Assembly: GCA_030704615.1 (NCBI GenBank)
Contig: CM060733.1
Coordinates: 72,106,001 to 72,170,000, forward strand
Length of the DNA: 64,000 nucleotides
Direction: 5' to 3'
From: Takakia lepidozioides
Lineage: Eukaryota > Plantae > Bryophyta
This document shows, in pieces, positions 4,668 to 60,840 of the stretch. The translations under genes were made by a program, and so were the position numbers. The notes beneath the pieces were generated by a model. It was not told where the DNA came from and did no database searches. It saw only the letters and a program-made list of their open reading frames with translations. Position 1 is the stretch's first letter; each line of letters starts with the position of its first letter.

Positions 4668-13977
<9,310 letters not shown>

Positions 13978-15543: not shown

Positions 15544-16124
15544 CTGAGAGACCACCAAACTCTGTCTTTGTTCTCTTTGGTTTTCACTGAGAGACAGATA
15601 GGCGTGAGCATTGTTTGGTTTCTACCTGGCAGAGAGAGGAGGAGGGCTGGTTAGAGAGGGCTACCATAGCTTGGGATAGGATTAGTGGCAGGTCCTTGGA
15701 TATAGATATACCTTCCACACCTTACCATCCTGCAAAACGAGGTATCTTTGAGATAAATTTGGCAGTTACTGCATGATTACATCTTGTTTGGCAGCTAGGT
15801 CTCTATTCCATCTTCTCTCTCCATTGTAGCTAGTTTACAGTGGTAGTGCCAAAGCCTGTATTGGCGGAGGCGAGTCAGTCCGGGTGTGGGCTGGGATACT
15901 ACAGAGAGATTTTGGTGTGGAGGAGTTGTTGTTTGGTTTTTTTTTGTGTTTGGATCCCCTCCACATCTGCGTGCTTGACTGTGCGCCATTTTAGTTTTGT
16001 GTGGGCGCTTGTTTCATAGGAGGTTGGTCCGGATTTGATCACCAGCAGATCCTAGAGCGTGCTGTCGGTGGTGAGGCTAGGGTGATGACCAATAGACCAC
16101 CAGTGTTTCTCTTATGGTGGGGAA

Positions 16125-22024: not shown

Positions 22025-22621
22025 TTAAGATTGCTTTGGGGAATTGGAATTTGGATCTCTTTGTAATATTTGTGGAGCAAAGTACATCCCGTGTTGGGGT
22101 GGTAAATTTGCCGGAGACACCTGATTATATTGATCAGGAAATGGTGCTCTTTGACCTCGTAGATTCTGATCAACTTGCCATTGGGTTGTAGGTTTTGGCC
22201 TCTCAATATTTCGCATTCGACAGCGCTCCAAAGGATGACCTACTAGACCACAATGAAGACATGTGCCATCGTTCCAACAATCTTCTGTTCTATGACTGGA
22301 CCGACCACACTTTCCACATGGCGGATAACGGTTTCGTGGCCTATACCCCTGTCCTGGTGGAGGATTCTGGGATGGAGGAGGTCCCATTTCCTGGATCGGG
22401 TTGGGACAATGAATATGACCTGACCCTTGACAATTATAACACCATAACTTGGACGCATTAGGACCCGTCTCAGCTAATGGAACCTGAGTATCCCTGTGAT
22501 GGACATAACTGGAAACCTGCTGACCAATGGCACTAACTCTATCCCCCATGGACTCAACAGCTCTCAACACAGATGTTAGTTGTTCCTCAAAATGTCCCAT
22601 CCGATCATTGCTAGTGGTCAT
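22025..22621 (-). mobile_element. Gag C-terminal (zinc knuckle) segment, inverted relative to pol
   Basis: CYNCQGSGH, CGKCGRSSHRTEDC and CLHCGLVGHPLERC on the minus strand; pol continues on plus from 22633. Confidence 0.8.
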
Positions 22622-22632
22622 TTACCAATCCT

Positions 22633-27058: not shown

Positions 27059-27747
27059 CCAGTTCCAGAGTAAGCATAGGTATGTCTTGCCCTAATCTTT
27101 TCTAGTCAAGAGTGGAGCTTGAATGGAAGCAAGGCAGTGGAGTTTCACTTTCGGTTTGATGCTGGACGAAACAGAAATGACGGTGGGGTATGTTACCGAT
27201 CATCATCAGTTCAAATTTTAGAAAGGGTAACGACGATATTCTCTCTACCCTGGTATCTCTTTAAATTGGTTGTCCGTTCATTCTTAACAATGTACAAAGT
27301 GAAAATTAATCTTCTGCAGGGTTTGAAAACGACGTCAGTGTTTGCATCCATATGTCACCTGCATTATTGCCGATCATTTTGTAAAAAATGCATGCCCACT
27401 GAGGTGCTTCAATTCCAAATCATATCTCATGTGCGTATATAGTGTTTGCTGCAACAAACACTCTGCTAGTATACCGATGTTCCCTGCATGGAACAGTGCG
27501 TCTTCCTGACGTGGATCTCTAACCTTGTACCCTTCCTTCCAATCTATTGTCAATATCTCTACCCCGCTGCAGTATTCCTCATAGAGAGAGAGAAATCACA
27601 AAGGTAGTGAGGGGGTAAAAGGAGAGATTGTAGAGCGGTGGTTGCTGCTCCCCTTATCTGAGTGAATGATGTCAAGCACAGGAAAACCCACAAGGTCCTG
27701 TGACCTCTTTTCTAGTAGTTAGGTAAAAATGGTGTGTCAAACCAGAG

Positions 27748-37544: not shown

Positions 37545-38339
37545 CAAGCTGCTTCTAATTTTATGGATGACGCTCTTGGGGAACCGGTGTGAGAGTCAAG
37601 GACGAAGATAAATAGTTCCTGTCGAGGGGCTCTTGCAGTGGAGATTACCTGTTTGTATGAATTGGCTTCTATAGAGACTATATTCAAGATAATTTTGCGT
37701 TGAAGACTATGGTTTTGGGTCCTATGGGCTGATGATGGTTGATTAATTCCATAGCGAGGGACCTCAATATGTTTGGACAAATTTGGTTTGGTGATGTTCT
37801 AATAAACTGCTTTGGACATTTTGAGATACATCTCGACGGGAGGTCTTCCTATCTTACTATCTTCTAATTATGCGTGTTTCATATTAATGGATGTGTTACG
37901 ACGGGAGATCTCCCTTGCCTCAGTGGAGATGTCGAACTTGGGACAGCAGACATAATTCTCCTGTACTTATGGAGTGACAATGTTTGGCATCTTTTTGTAG
38001 GCTAATAATATTAAAAAACTGTAGCAACTGTGAAGGACAGGAGGTCTCCCTTGCTAGGCTACCCGTGAAACTGTAGAAAACTAGGAATTCAACTCAGATT
38101 AGGGATGTGATCAGGGTATGGGTTCTCTGGGAAGAGCAATATTTACTTAACATTTACAATAAACTTAATAAAATCATTTAAATTTGTTTTCATAGTGAAT
38201 TTCTAATCAATTTAAATGAATTAATATACATATATATATATATATATACTATTCTTGGACTTTGGAAAGTCTAGATTTACTTAAAATCGAGTTCTTCCCA
38301 AATACCTTCCAACAGTGACATGGCTTCAGCAAGGTATAT

Positions 38340-40560
38340 ACTTCAGCAAGGCACATGCTTGTCGGTGGCTGCTGCAAAAGTCCCAGGCAATGACTGAACA
38401 AGGCCCTGCAGATCTGGCATGCGGCTCTCCAACACCTCCCTTTGGTGATAACTATGTCTGACGCACAGTCATTCTCCTGAAATCAGGACAAACAGAAGCC
38501 AACTTATCAACCCTCCATTATAACCCGCATGTTGAAAAGATTATGAGAAACAGTATTAAGACATTCTCGTTCAACAAGCATGGTGAAAGAATATATAAAC
38601 TGACATCTTGGAGTGACAAATGACGAAGGTATACTTTAGGATTGGCAGCAGCCTGCAAAGCCAGCAGCTGCACGGTGGCGGCATGGTATTCCATTAGTGT
38701 TGTGAAGGACTCCTCTGGAAGAGCCCCCTGTAACAAATCCATGCAAAATGGGAATACCACTCATGACCAGCAATAATAGATTGCCACAATTGTAAGGTGC
38801 AAAAGGGTTCAGTATATCAGTGGGGAAAATAGGCTATTACAGCATGAGGACATCTACCTTCCTGGAAGTCATAGAGACTTATAACCCCCTACCAATCAAG
38901 CACCAAACACCTTATGTAAGACATTTCAAAAAGCAAAGAGCAGTGTTCCACCTTTAATCGAGTAATTGCTGCTGCTATTGCCCTCCCTGGAGCTTGCAAA
39001 GCCCTGTTGTGCACCTATACCATCGTCCACCATTGACCAAAATACCCTTAGACACAATAACTGGAGTTCCAAAATCTATTTAGGTCACTAAGCTGAATCT
39101 CAAAATCTCACAAAGGGCACCAATGGCGAGACAGAAGAAATTTATACCTCAACAGGAGGCCAAGATAGAGTCGAAGACTATTAAAATATAAGGAGTGAAA
39201 TCAAGTGTCCTTCCGGGATAATGGGATTCCAACCCACAAGGCAGACTCAAGGTAGCCTCAGTACAGAACAAAAGATATTATACCAGTTTTGGTGTGGTCA
39301 GGATGCTGCTCATTTCGGCAGCAGAAATAACAGAAGGACACCCATATAAGCCAACATCCTAAAGAAAAGAAAGGATATGGCTCAAAAAACTACTAATCTA
39401 AAATTGAAGGACATCATTATTTTTCCACAAGCTACAGAATCAATCTGATCTGTTTGTTTGCAGGTGTCTCTTAGTATTTGGCAGACAATATAGAACAACA
39501 AGAAAGTAGGTCCAAATACACCACACATCAGCCAAAGACAAAGTGCCTAATGCAGGCAAGCTTCCAGATACTTTCAAGTCCTCAAGGCTCAAGCCCTCTG
39601 CCAAAGATAAAGTCTCTGAAGAGAAACAGTAGAAGAAAAACTAAAGTAGTAGGTCAAAGGCACTCTTGAGGCAGGGAGACAGAGATACTTGTACCCTGCG
39701 GCTGCCATATACATGCAAGCTTCAGCCTAAAGGGTCCTATATTAACCCTGCTGGAGCAAATATTATTCCTGTGATAGAGAGATAGATTGGATACGTATGC
39801 CTGACTTGCCTGGACGAAGATGAGAGCCACTACTTTGGGCAGCAACGCCACAGGGTCAGTCGCTTCTGCAACTTGTGATGTCAAGCCCTATGGCATAATG
39901 AGAACCAGCACCACATCATGAGTGAAGATGACATGAGGACATAGTTTGTGAAATGTAGAATACCCAACTTATCAGTACCCACCTCCATCTCCAGAATACT
40001 GTCCAAGAGTGAGATAAAGACTTGAATGTATAATGCAGCATGCTGACGATAATTATTCTTTGCTCTCCGACAATCTATTCAACCCCCAACACCTAATATG
40101 GTTCAAAAAAGTGAGAAATGGACGCGTAAACTTAAAGATCTCATTTGTCAATTTTTGCAACATGAGAGACCATGCTCAACAGCTTGTTGGTTGAACCTTA
40201 CCTTGCCATAACAATGTAGAAGAATCCTTTTTGCCTTCTTATCCAGGCTTCTTCAGCCACAGACCGCTAGATAGAGAACCTCAACACACATCAGCCACTT
40301 ATAAAAGTTTATTACACAGACAAGCCTATGATGCTTAGCTGGTCTTTTAGGATACTATTAGTTGTGCTTGCAAGGAGCATAGTGAGGCCATATTCTCAAG
40401 TGATACGTACCTCTCATTCACAACCGTTTCCAATGCCATTTCAAAAGCATCAACACTTCTGCACAGCATATGAAGCACATACGAAGCACAAACCAAGATA
40501 TCAAGTACCGGATACAGCAAGTACTTGGCCAACATCAGTTGTTGTAAAGTTGAGCCCTCC
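38340..40560 (-). pseudogene. UFL1: 3' fragment of E3 UFM1-protein ligase 1, introns retained, frameshifted
   Basis: Exon pieces SVDAFEMALETVVNE; GLWLKK/LDKKAKRILLHCYGK (frameshift); GLTSQVAEATDPVALLPKVVALIFVQ (39887-39810); VHNRALQAPGRAIAAAITRLK; GALPEESFTTLMEYHAATVQLLAL; ENDCASDIVITK/EVLESRMPDLQGLV (frameshift). 5' part of the gene not seen. Confidence 0.85.
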
Positions 40561-41807
40561 AACTGATTCAACTGATTTTGTTAATTTCTTAGCTCAACCA
40601 AAGTGAGCTATCCAAAGCTGAAATGGACAATCGACAGGAAGTAAAGTACTAAGTGACTCACGATTTCAAGCGTCCAAGCTCCTTGAGCTCTGTGCGGGCT
40701 GCTGCGGGCTGCTTCGGCCTCTTCCATCAATCGTATGACCTCTTCCCATGCTTTCTTTTCCTTTTGCCTGCAGGCTTCATGTTCATCCACACAACTTTCT
40801 TCTTTGATCAAATCGGACATGTGATTGACTAATTTGCCACCAAGAAAACCTAATTTTGCGACCAGCCCCTCTACAACATAAACTATACCATGACGTTGGG
40901 CAGAAAAGAATCACTCTATTCATATCAGCATATCCCCATTCCTCTACCGCAATCCCTATTCCTCTGGAACCTTTCAGCCATAACGTCAATGAGAGCTCGT
41001 CAGAGTATAACACTTGTGAATTGAGAGTCTTCCTCCGTATCCCTGGCGAACAATACAAAGTGTCGACGGGCTGGAATCAAAACAGATAACGCAACTTGGC
41101 CATCGCCAGCAGTTTACAAAGCTCGAAGTTTTGGAGCCTTGGTGAGCCACTAGTAGAAGCTCACGACACATTTGTACATACATACGTTAAGGATTTTGGC
41201 TGTGTATTACGCCATTTAATAGACTAATAATATTCACTAAATTCCCCTGTCCACGATAGACTCGGTCATAATGCGCTGTTTCGATGTCCTTTTCCAATGA
41301 CAGTATGACACGTGGCTCATAAACGTACTAGAAAGGTCTCGCAGGAGCGCCTAACGCTGTGTGCGCCGCGTGTCTCGCCGTACCGGGCTCGCCGCGCGTC
41401 TTACACAGCGCCTAACGCTGCGCTCGACCACATAAACGCATACTTACGCATACGCTCCCGCTCGCTCGCGTATGCTTATTCTGTACTAGATAATGGCCAC
41501 GTGGCGGACCCGGCGAGCGGCGGGGCCGCGATCAGGGTCAACCGGTGGCCATTATCGAACGTAATTGGAATGGGGGAGTATTACTGGGGTTACAAACCCG
41601 AGATGTCGCTATCAGAGCTACGATAGCCAAAAATAACTTGCCACGTGGTGCAATGTGGCAAACTCTCTTGACAAGTGAAAGGCCGAACCCTGCAAAACGT
41701 TGGGTGGCAGCTGTAATACGACCCCATGTCCAATTACGTATAATTCAACGGATGCAAGTAGAACACGTGAATGGAAGGAAACTTACGGATCCAGAGTCCA
41801 CATGTAT

Positions 41808-41909
41808 AGGGTAATGCCCTGAGTGGAGGGCATTCCCGGCTTTAAGGCCTACCGCCCTCGGCCTCAGGCCCTTAAATCCGGGAATGCCCTCCACTCAGGG
41901 CATTACCCT
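41808..41909. repeat. 102-bp foldback element with perfect 32-bp arms (MITE-like)
   Basis: agggtaatgccctgagtggagggcattcccgg (41808-41839) is the exact reverse complement of 41878-41909. Confidence 0.9.
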
Positions 41910-42199
41910 GCATAAAGAAATGCCAAAAAATTATTAAAAAAACAATCTAATGGCCAGTGCATTTTGCATTTCGGAATGCACGGTAAGTGAATGGCGTTTT
42001 CTGAATTCCATACCGGGCATCGGCCGAAATTTGTTCCCAGTGAGTTCCCAGGACATCCAGTCCCATGCCCAAGCCTTTGCTTGGTCATGGGTATAAAGAA
42101 CTGCCCAGAATTTTCCTATACGATTCAAGGTCCCTCCCTAACAGGAATATGCCTCAAAATATTCCCGCTCAAATTGGAGGAACATTAGTGCGTCTCCTT

Positions 42200-42417
42200 T
42201 GTGCCTTTGGCCCACTATGAAGAGTTGAAATCTAAGACCAAGTGCAATTTCCTATGTATCCCACTGCGTCTCCTATGTCAAGGCCCAAGTGCGACCTCTA
42301 GGGTAGCATGTGCCTTTGGCCCATGTATGAAGAGTTGAAATCTAAGACCAAGTGCAATTTCCTATGTATCCCAATGCGTCTCCTATGTCGAGGCCCAACT
42401 GCGACCTCTAGGGTACC
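42200..42417. repeat. About 109-bp tandem duplication
   Basis: tgtgcctttggccca…tgaagagttgaaatctaagaccaagtgc…gcgacctctagggta, two copies. Confidence 0.9.
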
Positions 42418-42773
42418 CTCTGCCGTTGGCCCAAGAGTCCAATGTCATGTAAGTCCAAATGCATTTTTTTTTCCACAGAGCCTACGACCAAATTTGAACC
42501 AGAGTCCTTTCCCTTGATATCTCTTCAAGGCTCCAACCATTGTCCCAAGATAGCCCCACATTGCTATTTTTCGGGAATTTTCAGCGACCCAATCTTGCAC
42601 CACCAGAGCTGCTCAAGAGAGCATACGATTCCATCCAACGGCCACCCAATCTCACAGTTGAGGGCATTTTGGACCAAGGGAGACAACCACAAAGGGTGTG
42701 ACATGATGTTTGATGCTATGAATCCATGGGGTGACTGTCCCCCCTTTGCAGAACGGTTGGCCATCCAGGAGCA

Positions 42774-43050
42774 ATGATTTTTGGACCTACGTTGTGGAAG
42801 ATGTGGACTTTCAACCAAAGGAAACAACTCGAAGTGGGACAAGTTCTTCGGACTAATGATATTCATATCTGTGCTGGGCAGAAACATGGGAAACGTCGGA
42901 TAAACTGGTTGGAGATGTGAATGGTTATAAATGGGCAGGTAAGATGTGTACTTTCAAGGCAGCCTCTGCCAAACGCAGTCAAAAAGGGGCTGGATTCTTT
43001 GTCCGTGATTTCTTGTTTGACAATTGTGAAATTATCAACTATACATCGTC
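42774..43050 (+). mobile_element. LINE ORF2 N-terminal AP-endonuclease fragment
   Basis: NQRKQLEVGQVLRTNDIHICAGQ/ETWE…VNGYKWAGK…KGAGFFVRD with one frameshift; abuts the truncated end of the methyltransferase retroelement. Confidence 0.65.
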
Positions 43051-43469
43051 TCTCTCCTCCGGTGACTATAGGTCCAACATCAGGCTCCCAGTTGTCCTCT
43101 GTGACTGCAACCTTGAGTCCAGCAGGCTTAGAGGTAGAAGACGCGTTCCGTGGTTGCTATGCTGCAACCTCTTGAGCAGTGACCACCGCCTCTTTTGTCA
43201 GTGACAATGTCTCATCCTGCCCCATCATCCCATCCTTGAGGACCTCCTCAACCCGAGAAAAATCCCCAACCTCATCCATCACCGCCGCCTTGGCTGCCAA
43301 CTCCTTCTGAACCTTGAGCACCTCCCACGTGTGCCATGGATGCGGCCTGCACCTCGTGGTCCTCACCTATTCGCCCCCACTCGCTGCCTGTACCGTCTCG
43401 GTAAGCAGGGAGACCATCAAGGGAAGTGTACTCCGTACTCGGCGCTGCTCAGCCATAGTCAAGCTGATA

Positions 43470-44415
43470 ATCCAGGTCAAGCAATTGAGATCCATTGCTT
43501 GCCCCAACACCTGACGACGTGATGCCTCAGAAAGAGATGGCTCCGCCGTGGTACCAGTGGTAAAACCCATCGCCCGCTCGCGCTCGTCAGCATTGGGCTC
43601 CACTAATTGCTGCAATTGGCTATCCCACAAGAGGCTAGGTCCACCATCCCGAAAAGCATGAGATCCTGGAAAGCTGAGCAGTGTAGGCAATGCGGCTTGT
43701 GGGTGACCCACCTTATTGACCACTGCCAAAGGTGATCGGTCATCGTGTCTCACATGCTGAGACTGCCTCCTTATGTCCAAAATGCTATCCACCGTCAGGT
43801 GTGGTGGCCGCTGCACCCCATCAAATGCACGCTTGAGCAGTGCAGGTGGCATCAAGTTGGTCCACCATAGTCGTGGGCGATGAGCCCGTAACCCCACTGC
43901 AGCTGCGTCCAGCAACACTGCTAACCCAAGCCCAGACCGCACTTGATGCACACTGGCCATCACCTTGGCTCGAGAATCACCCATCAATGGCACATTCTCC
44001 AAGATATATGCCGGAGAGTCTGTATGCTGAAGCTGTAAATAGCGTAGGACCCTCAACATCTCCCAAAACAGGCGTGACCTTGAGTCTTGTAACCCATTGC
44101 CATGCCCGGCTGATGAATGCCCTTGGCAGGGCCAACCTACCACTACCAAGTGAATAGGGTCAACCCGCTCCAAATCATACGCCCCCAGCAAAGAGATGTC
44201 TGCTGGCAATGCTTGTTGGTATCCACGAACTGTAGACACTAGCAACAAAGCAGGGTACTGCTACACCAACTGAGCAACATAGCGCAGTGAGACGCGTCAT
44301 GTAGTCTCATCCCTTTCCACATACAGGTAACGTCAAACTCGTACACCTGCCTGCAGCACTACAGCCAATCCACTGTTGATTCCGCCAAACAAGTCCAGAA
44401 GGCATATGCCTTCAT
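43470..44415 (-). pseudogene. C5-cytosine DNA methyltransferase domain within the retroelement polyprotein
   Basis: Motif I LLDLFGGINSG; II YVERD; III ADI; IV GWPCQGHS (catalytic Cys at about 44127); VI ILENVP; VIII AHRPRLWW; IX ERERAMGF; X RRQVLGQAM. Three in-frame stops (TGA, TGA, TAG). Confidence 0.93.
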
Positions 44416-47400
44416 CCGGGCACTGCCACACAAGAAGTGTGGTGTCCAATGGCGACAACTGAGATGGTCCTGGTGCAATCACCGCATTCTCCTCCTCTCC
44501 TGACGGTACGAAGGCTTCTACCCAGGCTTGTTGCACCCGTCTATCAGCAGCCTGCTGTAAATCCTTGCTCGTACCCCACAATGGAGTGTGAGCAACCATG
44601 GCAGACAACTCCGCCGTACCATGCATATCATCCTGCTCTGCTGGAGGTGGCACATCCTCTGCATGGGCATTGCCCTCCAGCAACTCTCCAGGCCAATTAA
44701 CTGCAGCTGTGAAGGCTGCTAGTGTTGGCATCTTGCCCCACTGGGCAGCAACAACATCCCCAATGAATGTCACAGGGAGCTGTACACGACGACCATTCCC
44801 TGACTGCCATCCAGGCCTGTAGGATGCTGACTCATCCCAAAAATCCAGGGTGAAGCCCATGGGATCTGCCCCACCAACGAGGACATCGTAAGAGACCGCA
44901 TCTGTCACAATGGCCTTGGCTCGCATCACTGAGCCATCTATAGGATGATCCGGCTGTAATCTAATGGCCAACTTACGCCGTGTCATGCCCCAAGCCTGCT
45001 CTGATCATCCCAGAGATGTCTGTATCTGGAAAGGACAAGGCTCCATATCCGCCTCCATGAAGCCCAAACATGCAATAGCAGCTCTGCCCAACATTAGTGG
45101 CTGAGCTCCCGAGTCCAACAAGACCCGCAGTGGCCGGTACCTCTTGCCTGCCGGTCCACTCAAAGAGAAAATGTCATCCTGGTTGTCTAACAAGACAACT
45201 CCAGGTGTCACCATGGCGCGCTCAAAGTCTGGCCTAGCTGGCAGCTCCGTCAACCTGGCAGTTGCAGCTTGCCATGGCGCAGCCGTGGAAGTCTTGACCC
45301 TCAAATCCGAGGATCCCTCTGCCACTACACCTTCCACTAACTCCGCAGAAAATGAAGTGACCTCCCCACTCTCGTAGAGTGTTGCTGCTAGTCTGAACAC
45401 TGCAGCTGGTCTTACCTCCGGCGTCGCAATCATGGTTGCCGAGAACAGTGGGGCTTGACACACAAAGGCGGCTGCCCCCAACAACACACTGGCTGCACTA
45501 GCCTTGGCAGCAGGTGTCAGTGCTGCACGTGTAGCTCTCCCCAATGGCACAATAACGGCCTCTGTATCTGTCGGGCGAGAACTAGGTGCCATGGATGTCG
45601 TCGACACTGTCTCCCCCAAGATGAATGATTGTGGCAACCTAGCCTGATGGCTTGCCTCCCCACGCTGTGGATCTAAGTCCACCTCTGCACCTCGTGGCTC
45701 AGGAACTCGTGTTGCTCCTCGAGTGACGGCTGCAGCAGACTCCACCTGCACTAGTGGTAGTGCTGTCCCACACATAAATCCCATGCCTCCCATGTCTCCT
45801 CCGTCAGGATGACGCTGCTGAGGAGGAACAGGAGGTGGACCCTCAGGTCTTGGAGCTGGTACCACCTGAGCTGTGGCCATGGCAGCAAGCCTTTGCTCTA
45901 GTTGCTGAAGCCGGTTGGTCATGCCTTGGTCAACGCCCTGACCTCCACGTCATTGGCCATACTGTGCTTGCCCTCGTCCTACACCTCGTGCTTGACCACC
46001 TCGTCCTCTCTGAGGTGCTCTACCTTGCCATCGGTTACCATTGTTCCCTTGGAACTGGCCTTGCCGCAACTCAGGGTGCAAGTCATAACACTGGGCATCT
46101 CCATGCCCATACTTGCCACAATGCCCACACTGCAACTGTGTAGGCTGTGCTTGTGCCGACCTTTTGCCACTCTCTGGACAATCTTTCTTGACATGAGGTC
46201 CTCCACATATCCAACATATCACCCCAAGTTGCTGTTGGCTTACAAAAGATGCTACTAGCCTCTGCACCTGAGGTTCCCTGTAAGCTCCATGGAATTTGGG
46301 TTGGGAAACCTTGCCCCCCTGACCACGCTGTTGGGCAGTCCCTTGTGCCTGTGGGCTGGCAGCTGCGCCTCGTGCAGGCATGTCCTTGCCAAATCCAATG
46401 GTAACAACTCGCTCCTCCACCATGTTGAGCTCAATCCGCTCAGCCAACAGAAACACATCTACTAATGTGGGTTGGGCTGCTTGTAACAGGGTTGTATCCC
46501 GCACCCTTCTCCTGAGCTCTTTATCCAAAATTCCATACCAGAACTGGATTGCCTGAGCTTTAGTAACCCCTTGGGTCACACTTATCAAGCGCCTCATACG
46601 AGTGTAGGCCTCTCGCAAGCTCTCACTGGATTTGCATTGGAAGTCTTGCAAACTTCGCAGCTTCTCTGTCCGTACACCTTGGTAGTTCCTCCGCAACTTC
46701 TGGAAGAACTCCACCACCGGGCTGAATCTAGGCACATGTGTTGTAGTCGTGCAGGAGAAGTAGTAGCACCTTCTACAGAAGTACCGGCACTACTTGTTCC
46801 ACTACTTGTTTCACTACTAGTGCTGGCCGTGGGAGATATTGGTGTTGATGCCGCTACTGGTCGCGTTGTGCCTCGAGTAATGGCGACGTAGTCAGGAGAC
46901 CAATACATCCTCCACTCCTCAATCTCTGCTTCATGTCCTTGCCTGAACTCGTGGTAATCGTCCATAGGCGGGCCTTCCAAATGCTGGAACAATCCCTTCC
47001 ACGCCATGAATGGGGTGAACAGCTGTGGATTGCGCATCTGTTGCAAATCACACCAGCTGTCGAACTCCTGGATAAAGTCATCCAGCTCGATTGTGCCCAC
47101 AGCTCCAGAGTACATACGAGGCCCCTTAGTAGTTCCATACATCTCCTCCATGTCGTCCCACAATAATGGCGAAGAAAACTGCACACCTGTTGATGAAGCC
47201 TCCGGGTCTGTGTCAGACTCTACAGTAGTCGAGGGTGGAGGTGAAGGTGGTCTGAACCGAATACCTCGTCTTGTGAACCCACTCTCACTACTACTGCCTG
47301 TAGTTGTACTCCCCTCAACACCCTTGGGTAACTCCGTGATGACACTCACAACGTGCACCTCCCCTACGTGACACTATAAGGCTCCAGTACTAATTCTAAT

Positions 47401-47428
47401 AGTGACACGGGTGGGCACCTGTTGCAAT

Positions 47429-47983
47429 TTAAGGGTCATATCCCAGTGGCTCAGGGCACCTGCACTCGAAAGCTTTGAGACGGTTGCGAGTGTCCTCATT
47501 GCGAATGACTGCATCTCCTTCAAGCAGAACAAACTTGTCATTGCTAATGAACCCCCGCTCGCGGTTGCCTTGTGCAGAGCGTGTCCGACTGCAACCATGT
47601 CTGATTGCAAAAACTTGTGTAGCTCTTGCTCCTCTGCTCCAGTACACCACGACCTTGTGGCTGAATACCTTGGTCCCCGGGGCTGTCTTTGGCTGTGTTC
47701 CAAGCCTAGCTTCCACCCACTTTGGTATCTTACCTATAGCTACAGAACTCCTTGCTCCAACAGAGTTCTGACTGTGCAAAGCAATATTGAGGCCCTCAAC
47801 GCCAACTACAGCAGTTTATTGTCTGTTGCTAATGCCTGACTCCCAGTATGCAATCAACTCGTCCAACTGCTCTCCACTCAAATCAGTTTGAGTTCTTTGA
47901 GAAACATAAATCTTGTCCCCTTGTGTGCACAGGCTAAGAGAAAAGACCTGCCCTTCAATTACGTCCTCATTTCCCCCAGCCAT
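47429..47983 (-). pseudogene. Orphan ORF of about 184 codons upstream of gag (one internal TAA)
   Basis: MAGGNEDVIEGQVFSLSL…YWESGISNRQ*TAVVG…FVLLEGDAVIRNEDTRNRLKAFECRCPEPLGYDP*; homologous copy at 15394-15543. Confidence 0.65.
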
Positions 47984-48278
47984 ACAAGGAGGACATCCCC
48001 AGATTTGTCTCTCATGTAGACCACAACAGGTTCTAGAAACAGAATTGTGGATCTTTCATAACACACTCACACTCAAAAAATTCCATAGATTTTTAGCAGA
48101 GTTTAAAAAACTAAAACCTAGATATATAGATTTCCCCTTTCTGCAGCTATCCCCCCAAAAACTGAGTCAAACGGAGTCCATTTGACAAAGTTATGACCAA
48201 TTAGGCTCTAAATCATTTAAATTAGATCAAAAGGTTTTTTTTTTTTTTTTTTTTTTTTTCAAATTTAAAAACTCAAAA

Positions 48279-48389
48279 GAAGGTGAAAAGTTCTTTGGAA
48301 ACTTCCCCAATCCTTACATGAATGGACTTCTCCACCTGGGTCATGCTTTCTCTCTGTGTAAGGTGGAGTTTGCATCAGCATTTGAGAGG
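48279..48389 (+). pseudogene. Cytosolic leucyl-tRNA synthetase N-terminal fragment (HIGH motif)
   Basis: [37 protein letters not shown]; isolated 37 codons. Confidence 0.85.
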
Positions 48390-48700
48390 GCGGCAAGAGA
48401 GGGCGTACTGATTGCACAGAGCTGAAGGATTGGCTTTAGGAGCTATGGCGGCTGTCTCAATGCAGGTTGCAGTGGGAGTCTCCTGCTCGTCTCTGTGCAA
48501 GTCGGGCTTTCTGGCGGGCTCCAATGCCTTCAGACTTACCAGGAACGTGCGCCTGACGGTTGCTCTTGCTTCACAGGCCTTTAGGTACACACATGTTTTG
48601 TGTGTACAAAAAAGACTAGTTTTTCAACGCTCTCTGCTCATAGAGCCAGGTCGCAGGTTTGCCATGGCAAGCTGCCCATTGTTGCTGCAAGTGCACATCA

Positions 48701-49399
<699 letters not shown>

Positions 49400-50002
49400 C
49401 TATAGTCTCCTCCTTCCATCCACCTCACCCTCATCAAATGGAAGGGAGGATGGCCTTGTGGCCAACTCCTGTTGTAGAAGCACGAACAACATACTCACAC
49501 TTGATCACCTTGCTGGCACGGAGAGGAAAATCCTGCGTTCATGCAGGAAGCAACAACCTGCCCCACAGCCCGCCTCATGGCTACCGCTCTCCGGTGCATC
49601 GTCCGGCTCCTCTGTCTATCCTCTTTCTGTATTGCTGCTACTTAACCCCATTATCAGATATAACCACAGATTGACAAAAATTGCAGCAACATCTCAAGCT
49701 TCCTGTTCTGCTCCACTCGGCACACATAGCCAGTCTAACTGCAGGCTCCCCGTGACCAAGCTATATTATAATAGTGCTTAAAAACAAAAATATCATATCT
49801 AGCTTAGCACTAGAAAACTAGATAGAGCATCTCTCTCGAGTGATTGAAAACTAAACTTACAGTGTTGACACAAGGACATGAAATACAACACCATCACTCG
49901 TTAAACTAAGAGTCGAGCCAGGGGCACCCCAAGCTATGGGGACTCCACCCCACAACATCCTATTCTCCCTTCATAAGCACACTCAGATTCTAAGCAGTGA
50001 AG

Positions 50003-50165
50003 GAGCTCGGTCGCGCAGGCTCAACTCGAGAGAGATGAGCCGCACGACTGACGCTCTCGTGAAGATAAGATGGTTCAGGTGTCAAGCTAAACTTGACACC
50101 TGACTTAACACTTGAACCAAATCCAAGTGTTAAATATAAATAACTAGCTTTATTCTAGTTAGTTT
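50003..50165. other. Cluster of consecutive hairpins
   Basis: 12-bp stem 50075-50103, 10-bp stem 50105-50133, imperfect stem 50138-50165, and an imperfect stem of about 20 bp at 50003-50056. Confidence 0.7.
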
Positions 50166-51369
50166 CACACTGTGTTTATTTAACTTGACAAGTCAGCTGA
50201 AAACAGAGAGGTGATTTGAGGGTATCTGTCAGTGATCGGCCATCCGAAGGAAGCGTTCCTGAAGGGATGTAGTCTGCCAAGTCGAAGGTTGGTAACATGT
50301 GCCTTATTTGTTTCCCCCAGGGTTGATTTTTTTTTTTTTTTGGCACAACATCCAACATCTGCTAGGATCTTTAGTGAGCACTTGGAAGAAATAGCATGGA
50401 GAGGGAGAGAAGAGAACCTGGTGGAGAGCAGGCGGGGAACTGGGAAGGCGAACTGTTGGGGAGGGATCCTCACTGGGAAGATATTGACTTGCGTCCACAA
50501 TGGTCGGTGGGGAAGCAGGGCTGGTGACCTCGTTAACTGGAGGGGAGATGTGCATGATGGTGACTGCAGCAGCCAGCTGGTTGTCTTTATCAGTGCTGAT
50601 GTCATCTGGAGAGGAGACATCGTTGGTGTCCAAGGATTCTGAAGCAGCTTCTGCATTTTTATAATGAACCCTGACTCCGTTGATGTAGTTTCTAGTCCTT
50701 TGTAGATCCATCCTATGATTTTCTTCGTCAATTTCCAGGTCCAAGAAGGCTGACAGCAGTTGGAAACCATTCACCAAAGTGTCTTGGTTCCTTATCTGGA
50801 GCGGGGGATGATAGCCACTGTTTGTAAGTCCAGATGGCACCCAGAGGTGGCAGCATATGGTAAATGTCTACCTCTTCCATTAAAGCCAACACTTGAGTTG
50901 ATGGTCTGCAGCTTAAACCGGGGTGATCTTCCAAGTAGGCCCCCCATGAAATTCTAGTCGAGGGAGACAAGAAATAGTGAGGGAGAGAGGCCTCAAAGAA
51001 TTCCTGAATCTTGTACTTGAATAGAATTTCCGGGCCAGTGTTGGGTGGATTCGTTCTGAGGAAGTGTTTGACATCAGAGGTCTGAACCCAAAGGGATATT
51101 TCAACACACTCCAAGTCATCAGACGTGATGAGAATTGCGGGGGGCTTGCCTTTTCAAAATATCAAGGGCGTGACACAGGAAGCCTGGGGAGCTGCAATCG
51201 TCTCAAGGGCTGAGCAGCCAATGAGGTCCAGGTTTGGAATTGAGCATGTGTTGAGGCACAGATTGGCAAAGGATTTGTTACAAGAAACAAAACATCAGCC
51301 CTGCTTGTTGGAGACCACTCAACTTCCACACTGGGCTCGCCACCTACTTGGGGTTCCAACCATGGTCTA

Positions 51370-53630
51370 ACGTGGCTTAAACCAGGTGAAACAACAACAC
51401 TCCTGGGCTATACCTTCGGAATCGACCTCACAGATGATCAAAAATTTGCCCCAACAATGCTAAAGCTAAAAAAAAAACTCTCTTACTGGGGCTCAAAGCA
51501 CCTTTTGCTCATAGGTCGGGTCTTGGAGGCAAACCAAATTTGCTCAGCTGGCATGTGGTTTTACTCATCATCGTGGCGTCCAGACTCAAAACAGGTCCAA
51601 GAGGCTAGACGCTACCTTAGAAACTTCATCTGGGGAGCACACAAGACCACAGAAAACAAAAGACTACAGGTCGGTTGGAAGCAAATATGCCTCCCTAAAA
51701 AGAAAGGTGGACTGGGTGTATTGGATTTGGAAACTCAAATTAATGCCCTTCTTGGAAAATGGATTAGGTTGCTGGAAATTTTTAGTTCATGATCACATCA
51801 CTGTATCTTCCCCCCTCAAGGTACCCACATGGCAACCCTCGCTTCGTTGGATCACCCATGGGTTCAACCTCAAGTAGGATCACCTCTCTCGAAAAACATC
51901 TGGCGTGCATGGGGCAAGCTTCGCAAAGACCTGATCAAAGCCCAACCTTTGAACTTAGTGCTCAGGCAGCACCTTTTTCTTAATACAAATACCCCGAATC
52001 CTTCCCAGCGCAACCAGGCCAAACGCTGGTCCAATTGGGATAACCTGGGAATCAGCCAGATCAACAACGTTTGGAAAAACACAGCTCTGCAACCCCTGGA
52101 ATATATTTCAGAGCTGGTAGGTAAAGGCAGAGCGTCCCAAGGCTATCAAGACCTCATTACATCCATAAACCCTCATTGGTTAACCATCCTTGAAACAGGC
52201 CTTTCAGAATTGGTGGACAACACGTGGGGCTTGGCTATCTACCAGGGTCAGTTATCAATCCTTTTTGTCCAGTATGTGACACCACAGCAGCTCACTATCT
52301 TCTCCTTTCGCATCACACATCTACACTGGTGCTCACTCTCTCTTCCACCCTCCCACAATCCATCCAACACATCCCTCTAACTCCGATTATAATCTGTTGT
52401 TGGTCTTCTCCTGATAAAGCCTTCAACCCGTTACCCCCGCTGACAGTTCCACTTCATGACTGGCTTGCCTCTAATACCTTCGTTTGGATTCTTGAAAGAC
52501 CTTTGCTAGAACTCGATATCGACCCTACTGAGTGGTCCTGGAGTTTCGCCAGGTCACCATACCCCTTCTTTTCTTATACAACAAAAAGAGGATACAGGGT
52601 ACTCTCAAAAACTCAACCAATGCTCTCAAAGTGGGACTTAAAATGGGAAGCCCATGGATTTCGAGAAGAGAGGTGGTCGGTTATTTGGGGCTCGGTATGG
52701 ATCAAATCTCGTCTTGCTAAAAAATTTGCTTTTCTGTGGCAAGTAGCAAATCGAGTTCTTAAAGTAGGTGAGTGGCTCCGGTTCCATGCATCAGTCCTTT
52801 GCGCTTGCTGCTCTACCGCCGTGCAGGAAACCCTGGAACACTGTCTGCTTCACTGCCAAGCACCATCCAAGATATGGCCTCTAGCGATTTTTTTTTACCT
52901 AAACTAGAATCCAAGGCCTCTCTCTGAAACTCATTTGCTACTAAACTATGACAGGAATACAAAAAACAAAGCTGTGAGCTGTCTTCTATTTGAAACCCTC
53001 AGAGGGTCGACATTGTGGCATCTCTGGAAAATCCGCTGTAAGAATACCTTCTCTGGAAAGACAGCCACGATATTCTCTCTCCTCTCCAGCATTTTTTACG
53101 ATCTCCACACTGAAGCTCGTAAAGCATGGGCTAAAACGTGTGCAGACATGGACCGAAATTCCTGGAGTGCAGATCAAATCCACGCAGCGTTCTGCAGTAC
53201 CTGGGGCCACCTTGGAATCACTTTCACCGGAGTTTGAGCGAGATGTCAACTGGAAACACATAAAAACTTCATCCAAGGCCTCCAAACTCAATTACTCTTA
53301 AATCCTTCTGCTTTAGGCAAAGTCAATGAGGAAGATCAATGTTCTTTGTTTCTCATTTTAGCTTTAGTAAGGTCAAAGGTCGGTTGGTTTAGGGACCACC
53401 AGTTCTTAGTAGGCCCGCCTACATTCAAGTGGTCTTCTTCCTCGGGATCCGTCCCAACATTAAGGTTCTTCAAAATCCATCGTTGGGTGGATGCGCGGCT
53501 CTTACTACACGACGGTGTGTGTGCCTTATGGCTTAACCGGGGTTTTAAAATTTTTCCCCATATTAAGTTATTAATAAAATTAATCAGGGCAATAAACCCC
53601 TGTTCTCTAAATTTGTTTTTAAGAAAAACA
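51370..53630 (+). mobile_element. L1-clade LINE, 5'-truncated (post-RT region, zf-RVT, 3' UTR)
   Basis: RNFIWG…VGWKQICLPKKKGGLGVLDL; CACC…ETLEHCLLHC; LWHLWKIRC. AATAAA, cagggcaataaacccctg hairpin and A-rich tail at about 53570-53630. Stops and frameshifts. Confidence 0.88.
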
Positions 53631-54527: not shown

Positions 54528-57500
54528 TCACCTAGCCATCTGACCTGGAATCTTCGACAATAACAGCACAGATGAGACGTTACCTAGTGCAGAGGCAGCA
54601 GATTCTACATGCTGCATCAAAAACTCATAAATTTTCCGCTTCAGCCTTGCCTTGGTGTCCACAACCTTTGGATCTGGCACTTCTCCCTGCCCAGAACCCA
54701 CCTGATCCTGGTCTAACCAGTCATTTACTCTTTTCAATTGTGACAACATGGCTGCAATGTGACTATTGTCTTGTTGAGATACAACTTTAGAAGCCAGAAA
54801 ATTAGCACCTCTGTCACTTACACTTGTGACTCGGAAGCCACTGTCAAGGGCGCCCTCCATGAAGTGGAGAAACCAGCGTTGTGCTTCACTCTGAAGCTGC
54901 TTTGCTAGCTCAGCTGTCTCTGTCAGTCCTGTTCCCTTGACCCAATTGGAAACCATGGGAGGTGACTTTACCTCAGTGTCTGGCAAGTCCTTACTCGGAC
55001 CTTTTGTGCTGCAGCTCTTCAATGAAACAACTCTGCCAGGGCTGCGCCGAGAAGCAAGCACTGGTGATTTCATTGGAGATTGGGGCCTTGGATCCCTATT
55101 ATCTCGCCTACGTTCATTCCCAGTTTGAGTCACAGAAGACAAGGCTGTCCGAGCATTAGCAGAGGCTGGGGTTGTCAATGACCTTGCAGTGGAGGCTGAG
55201 GATGGGGAAGTACTAGTGCCGAGTGGTGCCAAGCTGGTCGATCCATCCAGCAAAACCACCACCTGCTGGTTGATGGCACTCTTGGCCCGAGCTTGCTTGC
55301 TCTGAAGTGAGAAGACTGCCAAATCTGATGACAATGCCGCATTTACCCATCCCGCTGCAATACGTGCCTTCTCTGCAACAACTTGGACTTTCTCTGGTGA
55401 GGTGCCGTTTGCATCATCTCCTGCTGTTTCAGCAGCATGCCTGGTGCTGGCCATTGCATCAGCCACTGCGACTGCCTCTTTCAAAGACTGGTGAAGACAC
55501 AGAAACCGCTCCACGGATGGCTGAGGAAGCTCTGTCCTTGCCAATGAGCACAGCTCAGCAAACATGCTGTATGCAAGCAATCCCAGGTTTCAATCAGCGA
55601 CCCATATCCAAGAAAAGCAATATCTAGTAACCTTGAAAGAGAATACCTCATCGGCATTTGTACATCTGGGCTGAAGGATTTTACGAGCAGCATCCATGAT
55701 TTTGGTTGACAAACTAATCTCATAGCTACACTGTGCTTAAATCATCAAATATGGTTTAGAAAGCTAAACAACCAAAGGCTTGACAAGCTTAGAACGAGTG
55801 CTTGAAAGGTGCCAAACTAGAGCGAAGGATTAGAGTGGAGCAATGATGTGACGAACAAAAGAGTTCAGATGAGCTGAAGCTTCTACCAACTCCTCACATG
55901 TTTTTCAGCTCCTCGTTGTCCCGAGTCCTCGGTCGAATGTTGTTTTGGGAACTATAATTATTAATGCGGTAAACTCACAAATCACAAACAACACAGCAGT
56001 CCTCAACTGAAAAGTACACAGGTTTATCATTTTTATACATATCACACACTGGCAGAATCAATGCTCGCCAATGGAAGCATGCCTAGTTTTACCAGTGTAC
56101 CAGCTTGTATTCAAATGGGATCACAAGAACTGTGATGCTATCATGCTATAAATGAATAGATGGTACTCTCGTCCTTGAAAGACGCAAGGGCACCATGGCG
56201 AAGACAGCGATTTATATCACTTCTGCATGCAAGCTGCTTGTCTAACACCGAATAATGACAATAAGCAAAGGTTTTTTAACTCAAAAAGTGAAGCCCAACA
56301 ATTTCCTATCCCTTGCCTCAAACTTCGAAGAACACTCTCTGCTGCTGAAGCCTCCTGCAGAGCTTCTACTGCTGCTGATGAAGCTGCATCCCTTGTTTGT
56401 CTGGCCTCCTGATAGTTCAAATCATGCAAATGTAAGCTTCCCAAGTCTTCAAATCTTCACAGCTGTTAACCAAAAGATCTCTGTTATCTGGGGATTCATT
56501 TGCACACCATCCATATGCAAGTAATCTTGATGGAAAAGGCCACACTCACACTGTGATATCCTCTGGTTGGCAAGCTTCTCATGCTACTTGAAGCATAGCC
56601 AAATTACAGACTCTATTGATGTAGCAAATACCTTGCCGAGTGCTGCCAGAGTTGTGGGAAGGGATTCCCATGAAACACTGCCATCTGTCCACATTTTGTT
56701 GATAATAACCTCCTTGTTTATGGTTGATGGCAGACAAGGATCTATAGGAGAGACAGCCCTCTTCACAGGGGTAAAGTTTGAGACTTTAACATGCACTTTA
56801 GCAGGTGCCATTTTTGGAGATGAAAGGCCCTTGTCCTGCCCCCTGGTCAGTGTAGCACTCCCATTCCTGTCACTGGTCTTCCTTGAAACTGAAACCTATA
56901 CATCGAAGAAACACTTGTCACATGATAGATTGCATGACAAATTTCATCCCCTAACAAAGGAGTTGCTGCCTCAAACAATAAAAGTCAAGCGAGGTAAGCT
57001 TCAAATGCCAGCCTAAACCAGCATGCAAAATCCATACCGAGTCTTCCAGACAAAACCATGCCAGTTTTACAAAGTGGAACTCGTGGCCGCTGAAGGATAT
57101 CAATAGCAAGTGTTTTCACTTTCAGTCAAAGCTTTTTGAGGTTTGCACTTCAAGGCTTTTCCCACCTCCCAAGTTGAAGGGTGGACCATATTTCCATTTT
57201 CTCTAGTTGCACATACTCTGACCTACAATTGGGGGAACCCCCAACCCCCACGAAGTGGCCTCAATTACGGCTTGGTGACAGGCCCACTACCTGCCTGGAC
57301 AGAGTTCCCACAGTCCATGAAGTGTTGACAAACATTAACTCACAATACTTTTTTGTGTTCTAGAGAGAATGTACTCATAAGACATTGTTTGCTGTGGCCT
57401 TGTGGCCATAGACCCTGCGCCCAGTTTGGGTGGAACAAAAGGGAGCACTACCTTTGTGAGGGGCTCACTCCGGTAGTGTGACTTACCTTGATAAAGACAA

Positions 57501-59207
57501 TTAGTTCGGGATTTCCAGATATCCTCGAGAAAGTTCTTCACACAGCATCAACTTGTGTGTGAGCTGCCCAGCAATTAGACCCCAAGAGGGCCAGGGCTTT
57601 AGGCTCAGCCTCAAGATTTTGAAAGTTGGTGAACACAGGTGCAGGGACAATGTTCTTGATGGTCCTGAAGAGGGTCACTCTCTGGTGAGAATATCCCGGA
57701 TCTCTAGAGAGAAACAGATTACAAGCAAACTGCTGTGGCTTGTTTTTTCTAAGACAAGTTACTGCTGAGGCAAAGTACATACATCCTCAAAAGTATCATA
57801 TAGCCCAGGGTGGACCTTCAAAATGAATATTCCATCACAACTAGTACCCAAAGTCTCAGAAATAATCACACACAAATCGTCAGCTGGAAGACCATGTCTT
57901 GTCTAACTGAAGAAGCACAATAAAATTAGCAAGCCACCTACAGTGGAGAGGACAGTAGCTTTGACATCTCCTTTGCCTTGCTTGTTGGAGGCTGTTCGAT
58001 CTCTGCTATCCTTCACTCCAATGGCTCCCTCCCAGCTTTTACGTAAACCCTTGGTGCTGACAGTGGCCACATCTCCAGAAGGACATCCACCACCTAGAGA
58101 GCGCCGCTTACTGCCATCTCCGACGCTCATTCTATGGATGACTTTCCCTGCGCTCATTGCTCTCTTCACACTGGGAGACAATTGCTTGGACCTAGAGGAA
58201 ATCAGAACAGAAGCTTCTTTGTGAGGGATTTTTCTTTCATCAGCACCCAGTTTAACACCCCTCCTGAACATCATCTTGTCCACAGAAGACAATTTAGATG
58301 CAGGTGATCCTCTGTCTGTAAGCAAAGAATTTGTAGCTCCATGTGAATTCAAGGGCGAAGTAGAAATTGGGCAGGAGCGTCGCGGCAAAGAGGTTGAAGA
58401 ACAGTCAAGAAACACCTTAGACTTTACAACTCTGCCTTTTGGTCGGGAGCCGGACCGCCCTTCATCTTTCCTCCTCTGTTCAACTAAAGATTCAGACCCT
58501 AATGAAGAACTCAGAGTCGGCCTCTCCGAGAGTTGAGCACAAAAGTCATTTGCAGGCCGCGTGGCAGACCCATTTGAGGAGAACCCTAGCTCTTCATGCT
58601 GCACCTTGGAACCTTTGGGAAAATGTGACGCCAACCTGTCTTCATGTTTGCCATAAACATGAGGCTCTGCCCCATTTGATGCAGAAGATCTTTCAGCAAA
58701 CTTAGCTGCAACACTTTCTGCAGATGATGGGTCAAATCTATTGGATGACGTGCGAGAGAAACATGCTTGACAACTGTCAATTGAATCCAAAGAGCAGAAG
58801 TGATCAGGATGCACTGCAACGCTGATCTGAAGAGAAGGAACAACAGTGGCAACAACATCTTCAGGAGCTCCTACACATTGATGCCTGCCTGGAAGGGGCC
58901 GGACACCTCGGAGAAGAGGGACTGGAGACCCAGCTTCGAGCCTGTCAACATGAATGAATTGCCCAAGCTGCAGCTTATCACTCAGTATGAGATCATCGTG
59001 CTCTTCTGCCAGGGAAACATACGTTGCATGGGACGAGTCAGAGACTCTAATGTAAAATCCTTGATTCGGCCAAAGTTCACTGCCTGCAAGCGCAGGCACA
59101 ATGCTAATGACTTGCAAAAGAGCAGAGCGGTGCTCTCCTGTAGCTTTTTCATCCGAGTTCATGTGCTGCAGAAGCTTCAGGAGAACTCCAGGAGTTAGGG
59201 TCGCCAT
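54528..59207 (-). CDS. DUF936 / CORD-family microtubule-associated protein, 4 exons
   Basis: Exons 59207-57942, 56895-56632, 56408-56317 (GC donor), 55566-54528. [87 protein letters not shown]. Confidence 0.93.
57362..57700 (-). mobile_element. LINE 3' fragment in DUF936 intron 1, same family as 12778-13267
   Basis: Collinear nucleotide similarity starting at gagaatgtactcataagac. Confidence 0.85.
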
Positions 59208-60840
59208 CCTTTTTCTTTGGACCAAAGTTGCTTAAAGGGCTTGCTTTTTGGTGCATAGGTCACAACATGCTTATGCAAGGGAAATAGCAGTCTGCTTTCC
59301 GTGAGGTCTTCGTCTTCATTGCAAGATAGCGGAGGATGAAGTATCGAATGAAGGAAGGATCAGGGAAAGATCCCACGTTTCGTCCTAGGCTCCACATTTT
59401 CCGAACCGCATCCCACCATCTCGAAGTCGCTTTGGTGGGTGTTATATACTTACAACTGACACATCAAGATTCCCTCTTCAGATTGACCTTGGCAGAGAAG
59501 CTGATAGTCCCATCTTGGTTGAAAAGGGATCTCTGCCGAAAGCATCGGCCCCACTCATATGCCTGTACAAGAGCCTGTCAGGCTAATTGACGGAAGGGGC
59601 ATTGCGAGAAAGAAACATGACATTTGTAGGAAAATTTCATACGGGGAAAGGACAGCGAGAAGATAAGATTTTAAGTTCCAACAAAGAAGAACATTGAGAA
59701 GAGCAAGTTACAGTCCAATACATTGTCTAATCCATCAGCTTCCTCAATTACCTCTACTTAACCACCAAGCCTTCATTCACCCTAATCAGTTCCCACTAGT
59801 TTAGAGATGCCAGTCTCTGCACATTGGATCAGCTGCTGCACTTTGGTTGCCTGAGAGACTCCCAAATCCTCGCACCTCAGCTGTACCGCAATATGTGACA
59901 CCTTTACTCACGTAAGCTATGAGCAGTCGGTAAGAATGTGGAGAAACAGAACGACAAGGGCAAACCACATGAGCGCGGGAAAAAACCGATGATGAGCCTG
60001 CGTGCAGACAAGCAACATTGCCAGTGTCATGAATGGACAGCTCTCCTCCCGCCCCATTCCTCCTTTCCCTCCCCCACCCCTGCGTCTTGTGAGCTTCCAA
60101 ACAGCGCCCCCTCCCGCTCTACCTTACTCATTTTGCTCTCCAAACACATGTTTGGCTGGCCTGCCGTGAGCCCTGTGCCATGTGCTCTCATAGTAGAGAA
60201 TAGCAAAAAGGCTGTGTCACAGGACACCATAGAAATGATAGTTTTGGGCTGGCCTGGGGCGCTCTATGTGTAGGGGAAGGCTCTCGGAGAGGGGCCTTTC
60301 CGAACGTGAAGAAGGGCTCAGAATTTTCATCCAATCTGCAGAATGTTCCTCCAATTTTTTTTATTTGTTTTTAAAAAGTCCAATTTGCAGAATCAATATA
60401 TATTTTTCCTTACCTTTAATAAAGCCTCCAGGGCTACAATCCCCCTGTTATTATATACAGTATATATATATATATATATATCAATATCAATAAATGAAAC
60501 GAGACGTTTGTTTTGTTGGCCTGCCTTCTTAAGGTAGGACTACGCAAAGGGTTTCACCGTTTCAGCTTGTTTGACACCGATACTTTCGATTACGCTTCCA
60601 AATCAATCGAGACAGTTGTCGATAGAATATTCTGTGTTTTAATGAATGACATCCGTTGGTCAAGAAGAAGGAGACGGTTGAGTGGGTGAACATGGTGATT
60701 CAAGGTTTATAGACGAAGTCTGGAGGTGTGGCTGGTTGAATTCGGAAACTAGAGGCAAGCTCCAGATCTGCCGAGATGAATCGTGAGCAGTACGCAAGCT
60801 ACACAATGTGGAAGACAAGAAGGCCTTGACCAAATCGAGC

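Follow-up and report, generated by a model that had tools for sequence, protein, structure and literature searches.

A decayed Ty3/Gypsy retrotransposon with a putative DNMT3-like methyltransferase in Takakia lepidozioides, and its relatives in green plants

The methyltransferase-bearing element of the window

The window analysed here is a stretch of 64,000 nucleotides from Takakia lepidozioides (assembly GCA_030704615.1, contig CM060733.1, positions 72,106,001 to 72,170,000 of the forward strand), and its minus strand carries a Ty3/Gypsy retrotransposon in which a C5 cytosine methyltransferase (MTase) follows the aspartic protease (PR). The copy is dead and 3'-truncated, being cut before the reverse transcriptase (RT). 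Positions 46744-43229 (-) align to the Marchantia polymorpha gene model Mp_4g09160 (P0003) as a single block with 53% identity and no frameshift (tblastn), and the first-pass annotation, which had described one minus-strand frame free of frameshifts, was correct for this part; the N-terminal part of Gag (46870-47151 (-), frame open from 47373, tblastn 73% identity to P0003 residues 1-94) lies in another frame, split from the remainder by a frameshift between 46870 and 46744. The continuing frame encodes a capsid-like Gag region (46400-46744 (-), 76% identity to the P0003 segment, with a weak match to Retrotrans_gag PF03732, E 0.096) and two CCHC-type zinc knuckles (46088-46216 (-)) recognised from the sequence and aligned in relatives, the first (46216-46178) with a spacing one residue below canonical and the second (46129-46088) with canonical spacing. 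These are followed by the protease (44762-45211 (-), 54% identity to that of P0003, LLDSGA at 45121-45104) and the MTase (43445-44410 (-)). The frame ends in the stop UAG CAA CCA at 43151-43159 (-), beyond which the Pol frame begins: 43040-43150 (-) resembles the linker ahead of RT in the relatives and is broken off at 43040.

All the Gag, zinc knuckle, protease and MTase features reported earlier were thus located. The MTase motifs I (44407-44381), IV (GWPCQG, 44137-44120), VI (ENV, 44005-43991), VIII (43888-43871), IX (43585-43565) and X (43504-43490) stand in canonical order in an intronless domain, and a Pfam search matched PF00145 (E 8.4e-10); the same search left the protease and knuckles of this decayed copy undetected, while zf-CCHC and Asp_protease_2 / gag-asp_proteas were found in the relatives. 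As had been stated before, Pfam identified no BAH, chromo or UBA family in the window protein, and since the motif order is not DRM-permuted either, a host-type DRM, MET1 or CMT identity is excluded. The closest PDB sequences were DNMT3A/B (E 6e-6) and HhaI (6e-4), the identity to DNMT3 being about 21%, and a Foldseek search with the modelled domain of the related locus L009, a model of moderate confidence (pLDDT 60), returned DNMT3A as top match (E 3e-12). Together with the description of a related enzyme in the accessible text of PMC5890265, these sequence and fold searches suggest that the MTase is DNMT3-like. It shares fold and motif order with host DNMT3 enzymes (human DNMT3A/B; moss PpDNMT3b, PMC6453930), but differs from them by the low identity, by the lack of PWWP/ADD or plant N-terminal domains, and by being intronless and within a polyprotein.

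The frame contains seven in-frame stops. Three decay stops lie near the start of the MTase, and at least two of the seven fall on sites that have a different sequence in almost every other contig of the species. The last one (43159-43157) is not a product of decay but a conserved feature of the family, as discussed below. Past 43040, the contigs of all four sequencing runs depart from the window sequence, which there adjoins a second, different repeat; this bears out the earlier view of a dead copy truncated before RT. The abutting repeat (42200-43039 (+)) is itself high-copy and likewise cut at the junction, judging from depth and loose contig ends; a hAT-like identity of this repeat was unsupported by tblastn with the zf-C17orf113 frame of the window and by Pfam. 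Within it, 42591-42698 (+) holds a 36-codon MTase fragment of a diverged member of the same family in opposite orientation (tblastn 55-58%; DNA 69% identical to 43849-43741).

On the other side of the element, 47465-48235 (-) is also high-copy, with a summed contig depth of 2.3-3.1e5 compared to 137-329 in unique flanks. This stretch may belong to the element as its 5' untranslated region, or may be a repeat of its own; at 47464 the contigs from two sequencing runs diverge from the window sequence, and the stretch did not match the long terminal repeat (LTR) of the relatives. A 177-codon frame with one stop and no Pfam match lies upstream of gag (47429-47960 (-)) and has a 51% identical look-alike at 15385-15567 (+), both alignments ending near 47465.

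A land-plant branch of a known lineage

A query with the MTase region returned 69 proteins at E<=0.001, with gene models of M. polymorpha (up to 71% identity) and Calypogeia fissa (70%) at the top and Sphagnum fallax lower, and a profile search of 1.84 billion representatives returned 397 clusters (50% identity) at E<=1e-30. Closterium was the source of 6 of the 20 proteins looked up. No vascular plant was among the named matches, but most matches are without a name, so that absence from vascular plants is not implied. Among viral contigs P0003 had no match, and the alignment query brought up no more than remote MTases of phage type, with 25-52% identity across short segments. In M. polymorpha there are five near-identical, stop-free frames of 1278-1281 residues encoding Gag, PR and the DNMT domain, with 98-99% identity in the MTase, which are currently annotated as hypothetical genes. 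Four family members of Marchantia (P0072, P0073, P0074, and P0077), annotated as hypothetical, are on the V sex chromosome.

From metagenomes, the best 80 of 152 confirmed stretches were taken, representing 65 groups at 98% identity and mostly one Sphagnum-type family. The protease is ahead of the MTase in 52 of the 58 loci with room upstream, RT follows the MTase in 51 of 59, and the full order of gag, PR, MTase, RT, RNase H (RH), integrase (INT) and PHD finger is present in 14 of 80. The linkage of protease, MTase and RT thus recurs in the relatives, indicating that the MTase is not a neighbouring insertion, as the first-pass annotation had held. The broken state of the window copy and its joining to another repeat at 43040 could be taken to suggest a one-off retrocopy of a host DNMT3/DRM gene, an assembly chimera or a contaminant. 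This explanation, to which we give practically no credence, is refuted by the recurrence of the linkage in dozens of loci and in named genomes; the 397 clusters, the plant genes flanking the element, the motif order and the 41,819 contig pieces of one run that fall on 38000-52000 also speak against it. Over the coding part the summed contig depth reaches 4-9e5, compared to the 137-329 of the unique flanks, and while summed contig depth does not equal copy number, the family is likely very high-copy in the host species, probably with thousands of copies.

Klebsormidium nitens is the source of the described KnitGypsy-Dnmt3, which was presented as an acquisition in the K. nitens lineage with the MTase placed in Pol (de Mendoza et al., 2018, PMC5890265; here and below, statements on cited papers refer to the portions that were accessible). 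The K. nitens protein GAQ80424.1 is 98% identical to P0063 over 176 residues of the protease region, and P0063 aligns collinearly to the window protein over the whole protease-to-MTase part (29% over 566 residues). In a FastTree phylogeny that covered 193 MTase domains after 40 proteins, either near-duplicates or partial, had been set aside (midpoint root, no outgroup), the window falls into a 13-row group with liverwort and Sphagnum-type sequences (support 100), and this group nests in a 68-row clade (support 99) with P0063 and Closterium, where the MTase is ahead of RT. The P0063 match and the shared MTase clade point to common descent with the K. nitens element and not to independent capture, and the window element almost certainly represents a land-plant branch of this Gypsy-DNMT3 (KnitGypsy-Dnmt3) lineage.

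The other 125 of the 193 rows form a sister group with the MTase between RNase H and integrase. The same two layouts are split by one change in an RT-RH tree whose rows, apart from one further Gypsy of the window, all belong to the family; there the side with the MTase after RNase H makes up 57 of 77 rows. This RT-RH-MTase-INT-PHD layout occurs in P0040-P0068, P0138, P0155-P0160 and many of P0263-P0403, and the one named member of the sister group is the chlorophyte Hariotina reticulata; no description of the layout was found in the accessible parts of the literature examined.

The lineage of the window shares with KnitGypsy-Dnmt3 the Gypsy domains, an intronless and unpermuted DNMT3-type MTase, purifying selection, and DIRS-like A-coding-B-A-B repeats on a Gypsy body, the latter here in relatives only. 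It differs in its land-plant host and far higher copy number, as well as in the low identity to P0063 noted above, and in the position of the enzyme: the MTase is in frame with RT and RNase H in KnitGypsy-Dnmt3, an arrangement found here only in deeper relatives such as P0408, whereas a conserved stop puts it on the Gag side in the window lineage. For KnitGypsy-Dnmt3, the text of PMC5890265 speaks neither of a PHD finger nor of a readthrough context, 4-bp duplications or self-priming, and the word 'Marchantia' is absent from that text and its readable supplements. Later, PMC12344493 and the EpiLTR preprint (bioRxiv 10.64898/2026.05.21.726589) speak of 'streptophytes', citing de Mendoza et al., and the preprint sets EpiLTRs apart from 'streptophytes (Gypsy-DNMT3)'. 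Compared to the known lineage, the likely novelties are the land-plant branch, the Gag-side position of the enzyme ahead of a stop that is probably leaky, and the permuted LTR ends.

Other systems are less similar. SymbioDIRS-Dnmt3, for which de novo CG methylation in yeast and A-coding-B-A-B repeats were described (PMC5890265), and SymbioLINE-Dnmt are also retrotransposon-borne C5 MTases, but have DIRS (tyrosine recombinase) or LINE backbones and dinoflagellate hosts, in contrast to the DDE integrase and target duplications found here. EpiLTRs resemble the present lineage as LTR elements pairing a methyltransferase with a chromatin reader, but combine DAM, a DNMT4-related enzyme and a chromodomain, in Cymbomonas and Euglena. 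The moss chromoviruses Tcn1 and Tf1-sushi (Neumann et al., 2019, PMC6317226) are likewise bryophyte Gypsy elements, for which self-priming in the absence of a tRNA primer site is predicted, as may hold for the present lineage too; by their description, they differ in having chromodomains and ordinary LTR ends and no reported MTase. The C-terminal chromodomain of Tcn1 is not in the second open reading frame (ORF2) of the related locus L066, which has a PHD finger instead. A PHD-bearing Gypsy element is known from Chlamydomonas. The accessible parts of PMC6317226, PMC9516144, PMC10952607, PMC6453930, PMC11982613 and three preprints mention no such element, and in agreement with the first-pass annotation we found no described land-plant case and no report of a bryophyte DNMT-retrotransposon, in a search whose scope excluded Repbase, subscription journals and preprint supplements, the trees of which might include land-plant members.

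Conserved stop, selection and terminal repeats

In locus L066 an open frame of 1369 codons is followed in phase by one of 1047 codons, with only UAG-CAG-UUA between them, and its ORF2 encodes an rve integrase with an H2C2 finger and a PHD finger, with no chromo family. An in-frame stop between MTase and RT is present at the same place in 58 of 70 sequences, including the window, while nine sequences were unanchored and three are stop-free; 42 of the 58 stops are UAG and 16 are UAA. The sequence CAR-YY follows 53 of the 58 conserved stops, compared to 7 of 868 decay stops within domains. Moreover, the other copies of the host species show no listed variant at 43151-43159, though neighbouring positions vary, and the proteins of Marchantia and of the Calypogeia cluster terminate at the matching position (protein sequences, not DNA, were compared). 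Since the stop is conserved between MTase and RT, the MTase belongs to the Gag-protease product and not to Pol. The earlier interpretation of an integral pol domain therefore holds in so far as the MTase is integral to the retrotransposon and under selection there, but not in its assignment to Pol, as the stop separates Gag-PR-DNMT from RT-RH-INT-PHD.

The CARYYA context has been reported as important for readthrough (PMC3441728), and we consider it highly probable that Pol is made by readthrough of the conserved stop. Reinitiation at an ATG three codons past the stop is the less likely route: this ATG occurs in the Sphagnum-type group and is missing in the window, L009, L066, L072 and L073, so that readthrough fits better. 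Translation of Pol from a spliced RNA is a possible alternative. Several observations weigh against readthrough as a general property. The strict CARYYA context is present in only five of the 58 sequences (window, L009, L066, L072, and L073), lineages whose synonymous sites are saturated or nearly so where compared; in the large Sphagnum-type group the stop is followed by CAA-CCC, and UAA takes the place of UAG in the 16 sequences mentioned above; and the deeper relatives P0408, P0409, P0411 and P0416 encode PR-DNMT-RT-INT in one open frame with no stop. Since the 80 loci are mostly one family, about four independent lineages carry the argument. On the sequences compared, the conserved stop is thus a feature of a sub-lineage and is not needed lineage-wide.

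The MTase domain is under purifying selection. In the four pairs with unsaturated synonymous sites, the ratio of nonsynonymous to synonymous substitution rates (dN/dS; pairwise Nei-Gojobori, pairs not independent) was 0.095, 0.112, 0.126, and 0.171 for the MTase, and for the pair L066-L073 it was 0.106 in the protease and 0.026 in RT. Between the window and L002/L007 the synonymous sites of the MTase are saturated, with a proportion of synonymous differences of 0.75 and of nonsynonymous differences of 0.20 (0.20-0.23 over the window pairs). The decayed Sphagnum-type copies argue in the other direction, with a median dN/dS of 0.57 in MTase and protease and 0.36 in RT.

Complete ends were found in the relatives. 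L079 and L071 are built as A(339 bp)-coding-purine tract-B(113 bp)-A-B, where A begins with TGTCA and B ends with CA, and 3' ends of the A-coding-B-A-B type are also present in L039 and L042. The B|A junction reads CA-nn-TG and is retained in the distant L066 and L073. The 27 3' ends comprise 20 with a lone B (one of them where a contig ends), 4 with B-A-B and 3 with B-A, and an exact 4-bp target duplication flanks 5 of the 8 loci with both ends. The order gag-PR-RT-RH-INT, the TG...CA ends, the purine tract and the 4-bp duplications encountered in these relatives identify the element as Ty3/Gypsy, and the rve integrase with its H2C2 finger together with the 4-bp duplications rules out a DIRS / tyrosine-recombinase identity. 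Downstream of 10 of 20 5' repeats, in decayed copies, at least 10 nt can pair with a stretch inside A that lies below a TATA-like box, compared to 2 of 1000 control 23-mers.

From their sequence, B+A can be read as an ordinary LTR that is accompanied by a self-priming site, and the inserted elements as circularly permuted versions of it. Circles are usually regarded as dead ends for DDE integrases. Whether integration of this lineage would proceed from circles we regard as evenly balanced. Recombination between B repeats after insertion would also yield the short A-coding-B form, so that a circle step is something we infer. Three of the 8 loci with both ends show no exact target duplication, and no LTR, terminal A repeat or primer site was located in the window copy, which has lost its ends; both points weigh against the model proposed below. 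At the A2|B2 junction of L071 (10837-10859) there are about 21 extra bases, the end of which resembles the purine tract, as imprecise joining of complementary DNA (cDNA) ends predicts.

Possible role of the methyltransferase, and the neighbourhood of the element

Why retrotransposons keep an enzyme that silences them has been an open question since 2018, because the known hosts are difficult experimental organisms and no methylation was seen with the Gypsy enzyme in yeast. Here we propose that most ribosomes would halt at the UAG and a minority produce Pol, such that Gag-PR-MTase would be made in bulk and assemble into the particle, inside which the protease would free the MTase. The enzyme would thereby be packaged at Gag-like abundance, the Gag-side position predicting hundreds of enzyme copies per particle. 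Reverse transcription, probably self-primed, would yield cDNA with an LTR of B+A, and the MTase would act on this cDNA in the particle or preintegration complex. The cDNA would then circularise and the integrase open the internal CA-nn-TG, a two-LTR circle giving A-coding-B-A-B and a one-LTR circle A-coding-B. A cDNA that arrives methylated would determine in advance the chromatin state at its insertion, and the PHD finger of the integrase would aid site choice.

We consider this model as a whole, with its Gag-side MTase, leaky stop, packaging and methylation of the element's own cDNA, somewhat better than an even bet, and hold an active MTase working mainly on that cDNA to be rather probable, to a similar degree. 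Of the 193 aligned MTase domains, 192 have the catalytic Cys, and 191-192 retain Cys, the Glu of ENV and the two Arg residues of motif VIII, counts that are biased because the rows were chosen with an MTase profile. Two results weigh against activity on DNA: the KnitGypsy-Dnmt3 enzyme gave no DNA methylation in yeast, which the authors called inconclusive (PMC5890265), and the CG ratio of the element (0.48) compared to its surroundings (0.46) shows no extra CG depletion.

The yeast result also favours a second explanation, in which the domain is kept for binding or for RNA methylation, acting within the particle to bind or mark the genomic RNA or the cDNA, or for shielding cytosines from deamination, with no net DNA methylation. 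Abundance at Gag level would suit such a stoichiometric, structural role, and in 78 of 193 relatives motif IV has Glu in place of Pro. On the other hand, the retention of the catalytic residues just described, with its biased count, and the fact that the closest solved structures are the DNA enzymes DNMT3A/B make this explanation improbable in our view. Slightly less improbable, but still unlikely, is that an active MTase targets host chromatin, either the DNA of insertion sites or older copies in trans, thus limiting host damage and the element's own spread. The PHD finger of the integrase is a chromatin reader, and effects at the insertion site and host benefit are among the options named by de Mendoza et al. 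(PMC5890265). Against this, the fusion partners of the MTase in this lineage are Gag and protease and not the integrase, which would fit better with action inside the particle, and mosses already silence transposons through host DNMT3 and CMT (PMC6453930, PMC10952607). We retain methylation of the element's own cDNA as the preferred reading. Extended to an ancient green-plant Gypsy lineage, recently active in liverworts and present in high copy number in mosses, with a de novo MTase at capsid stoichiometry, a leaky stop, self-primed methylated cDNA and circle integration through an LTR-internal site, so that an integrase of retroviral type would normally use circles as its substrate and land-plant genomes would receive insertions that are already methylated, the proposal becomes tentative and is in our judgement rather doubtful in its entirety.

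The young, intact Gag-PR-DNMT frames of Marchantia make the function testable in a genetic model. The permuted LTR predicts circle integration and may cause programs that search for LTRs to overlook or misinterpret the family, and inventories of bryophyte methyltransferases may need to count element-borne copies.

The genes near the element are plant genes, confirming the land-plant context assigned by the first-pass annotation. They include glutamate dehydrogenase exons (11229-12722), an aminotransferase exon (48698-49399) and a DUF936/DUF6857 gene (54528-59231). A quick exon tree of the latter (39 rows, SH-aLRT support only, no named hornwort in the set) placed the window among mosses with a support of 98, on a branch separate from Sphagnum and from Physcomitrium/Ceratodon. 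The window further contains a zf-C17orf113 frame (5404-5970), a LINE-type zf-RVT (52194-52907), and a second, unrelated Gypsy element (22615-27100 (+)) with protease, RT, RNase H and integrase and without MTase, the RT-RH of which is at most 38% identical to that of the MTase-bearing family. At 49675-50300 lies another high-copy repeat (summed depth 2.8e5) that matches neither the element nor the related loci. A short class I aminoacyl-tRNA synthetase fragment (48261-48398 (+); PF00133, E 0.002), which we take to be leucyl-like, is located beside a long T run at the repeat edge.

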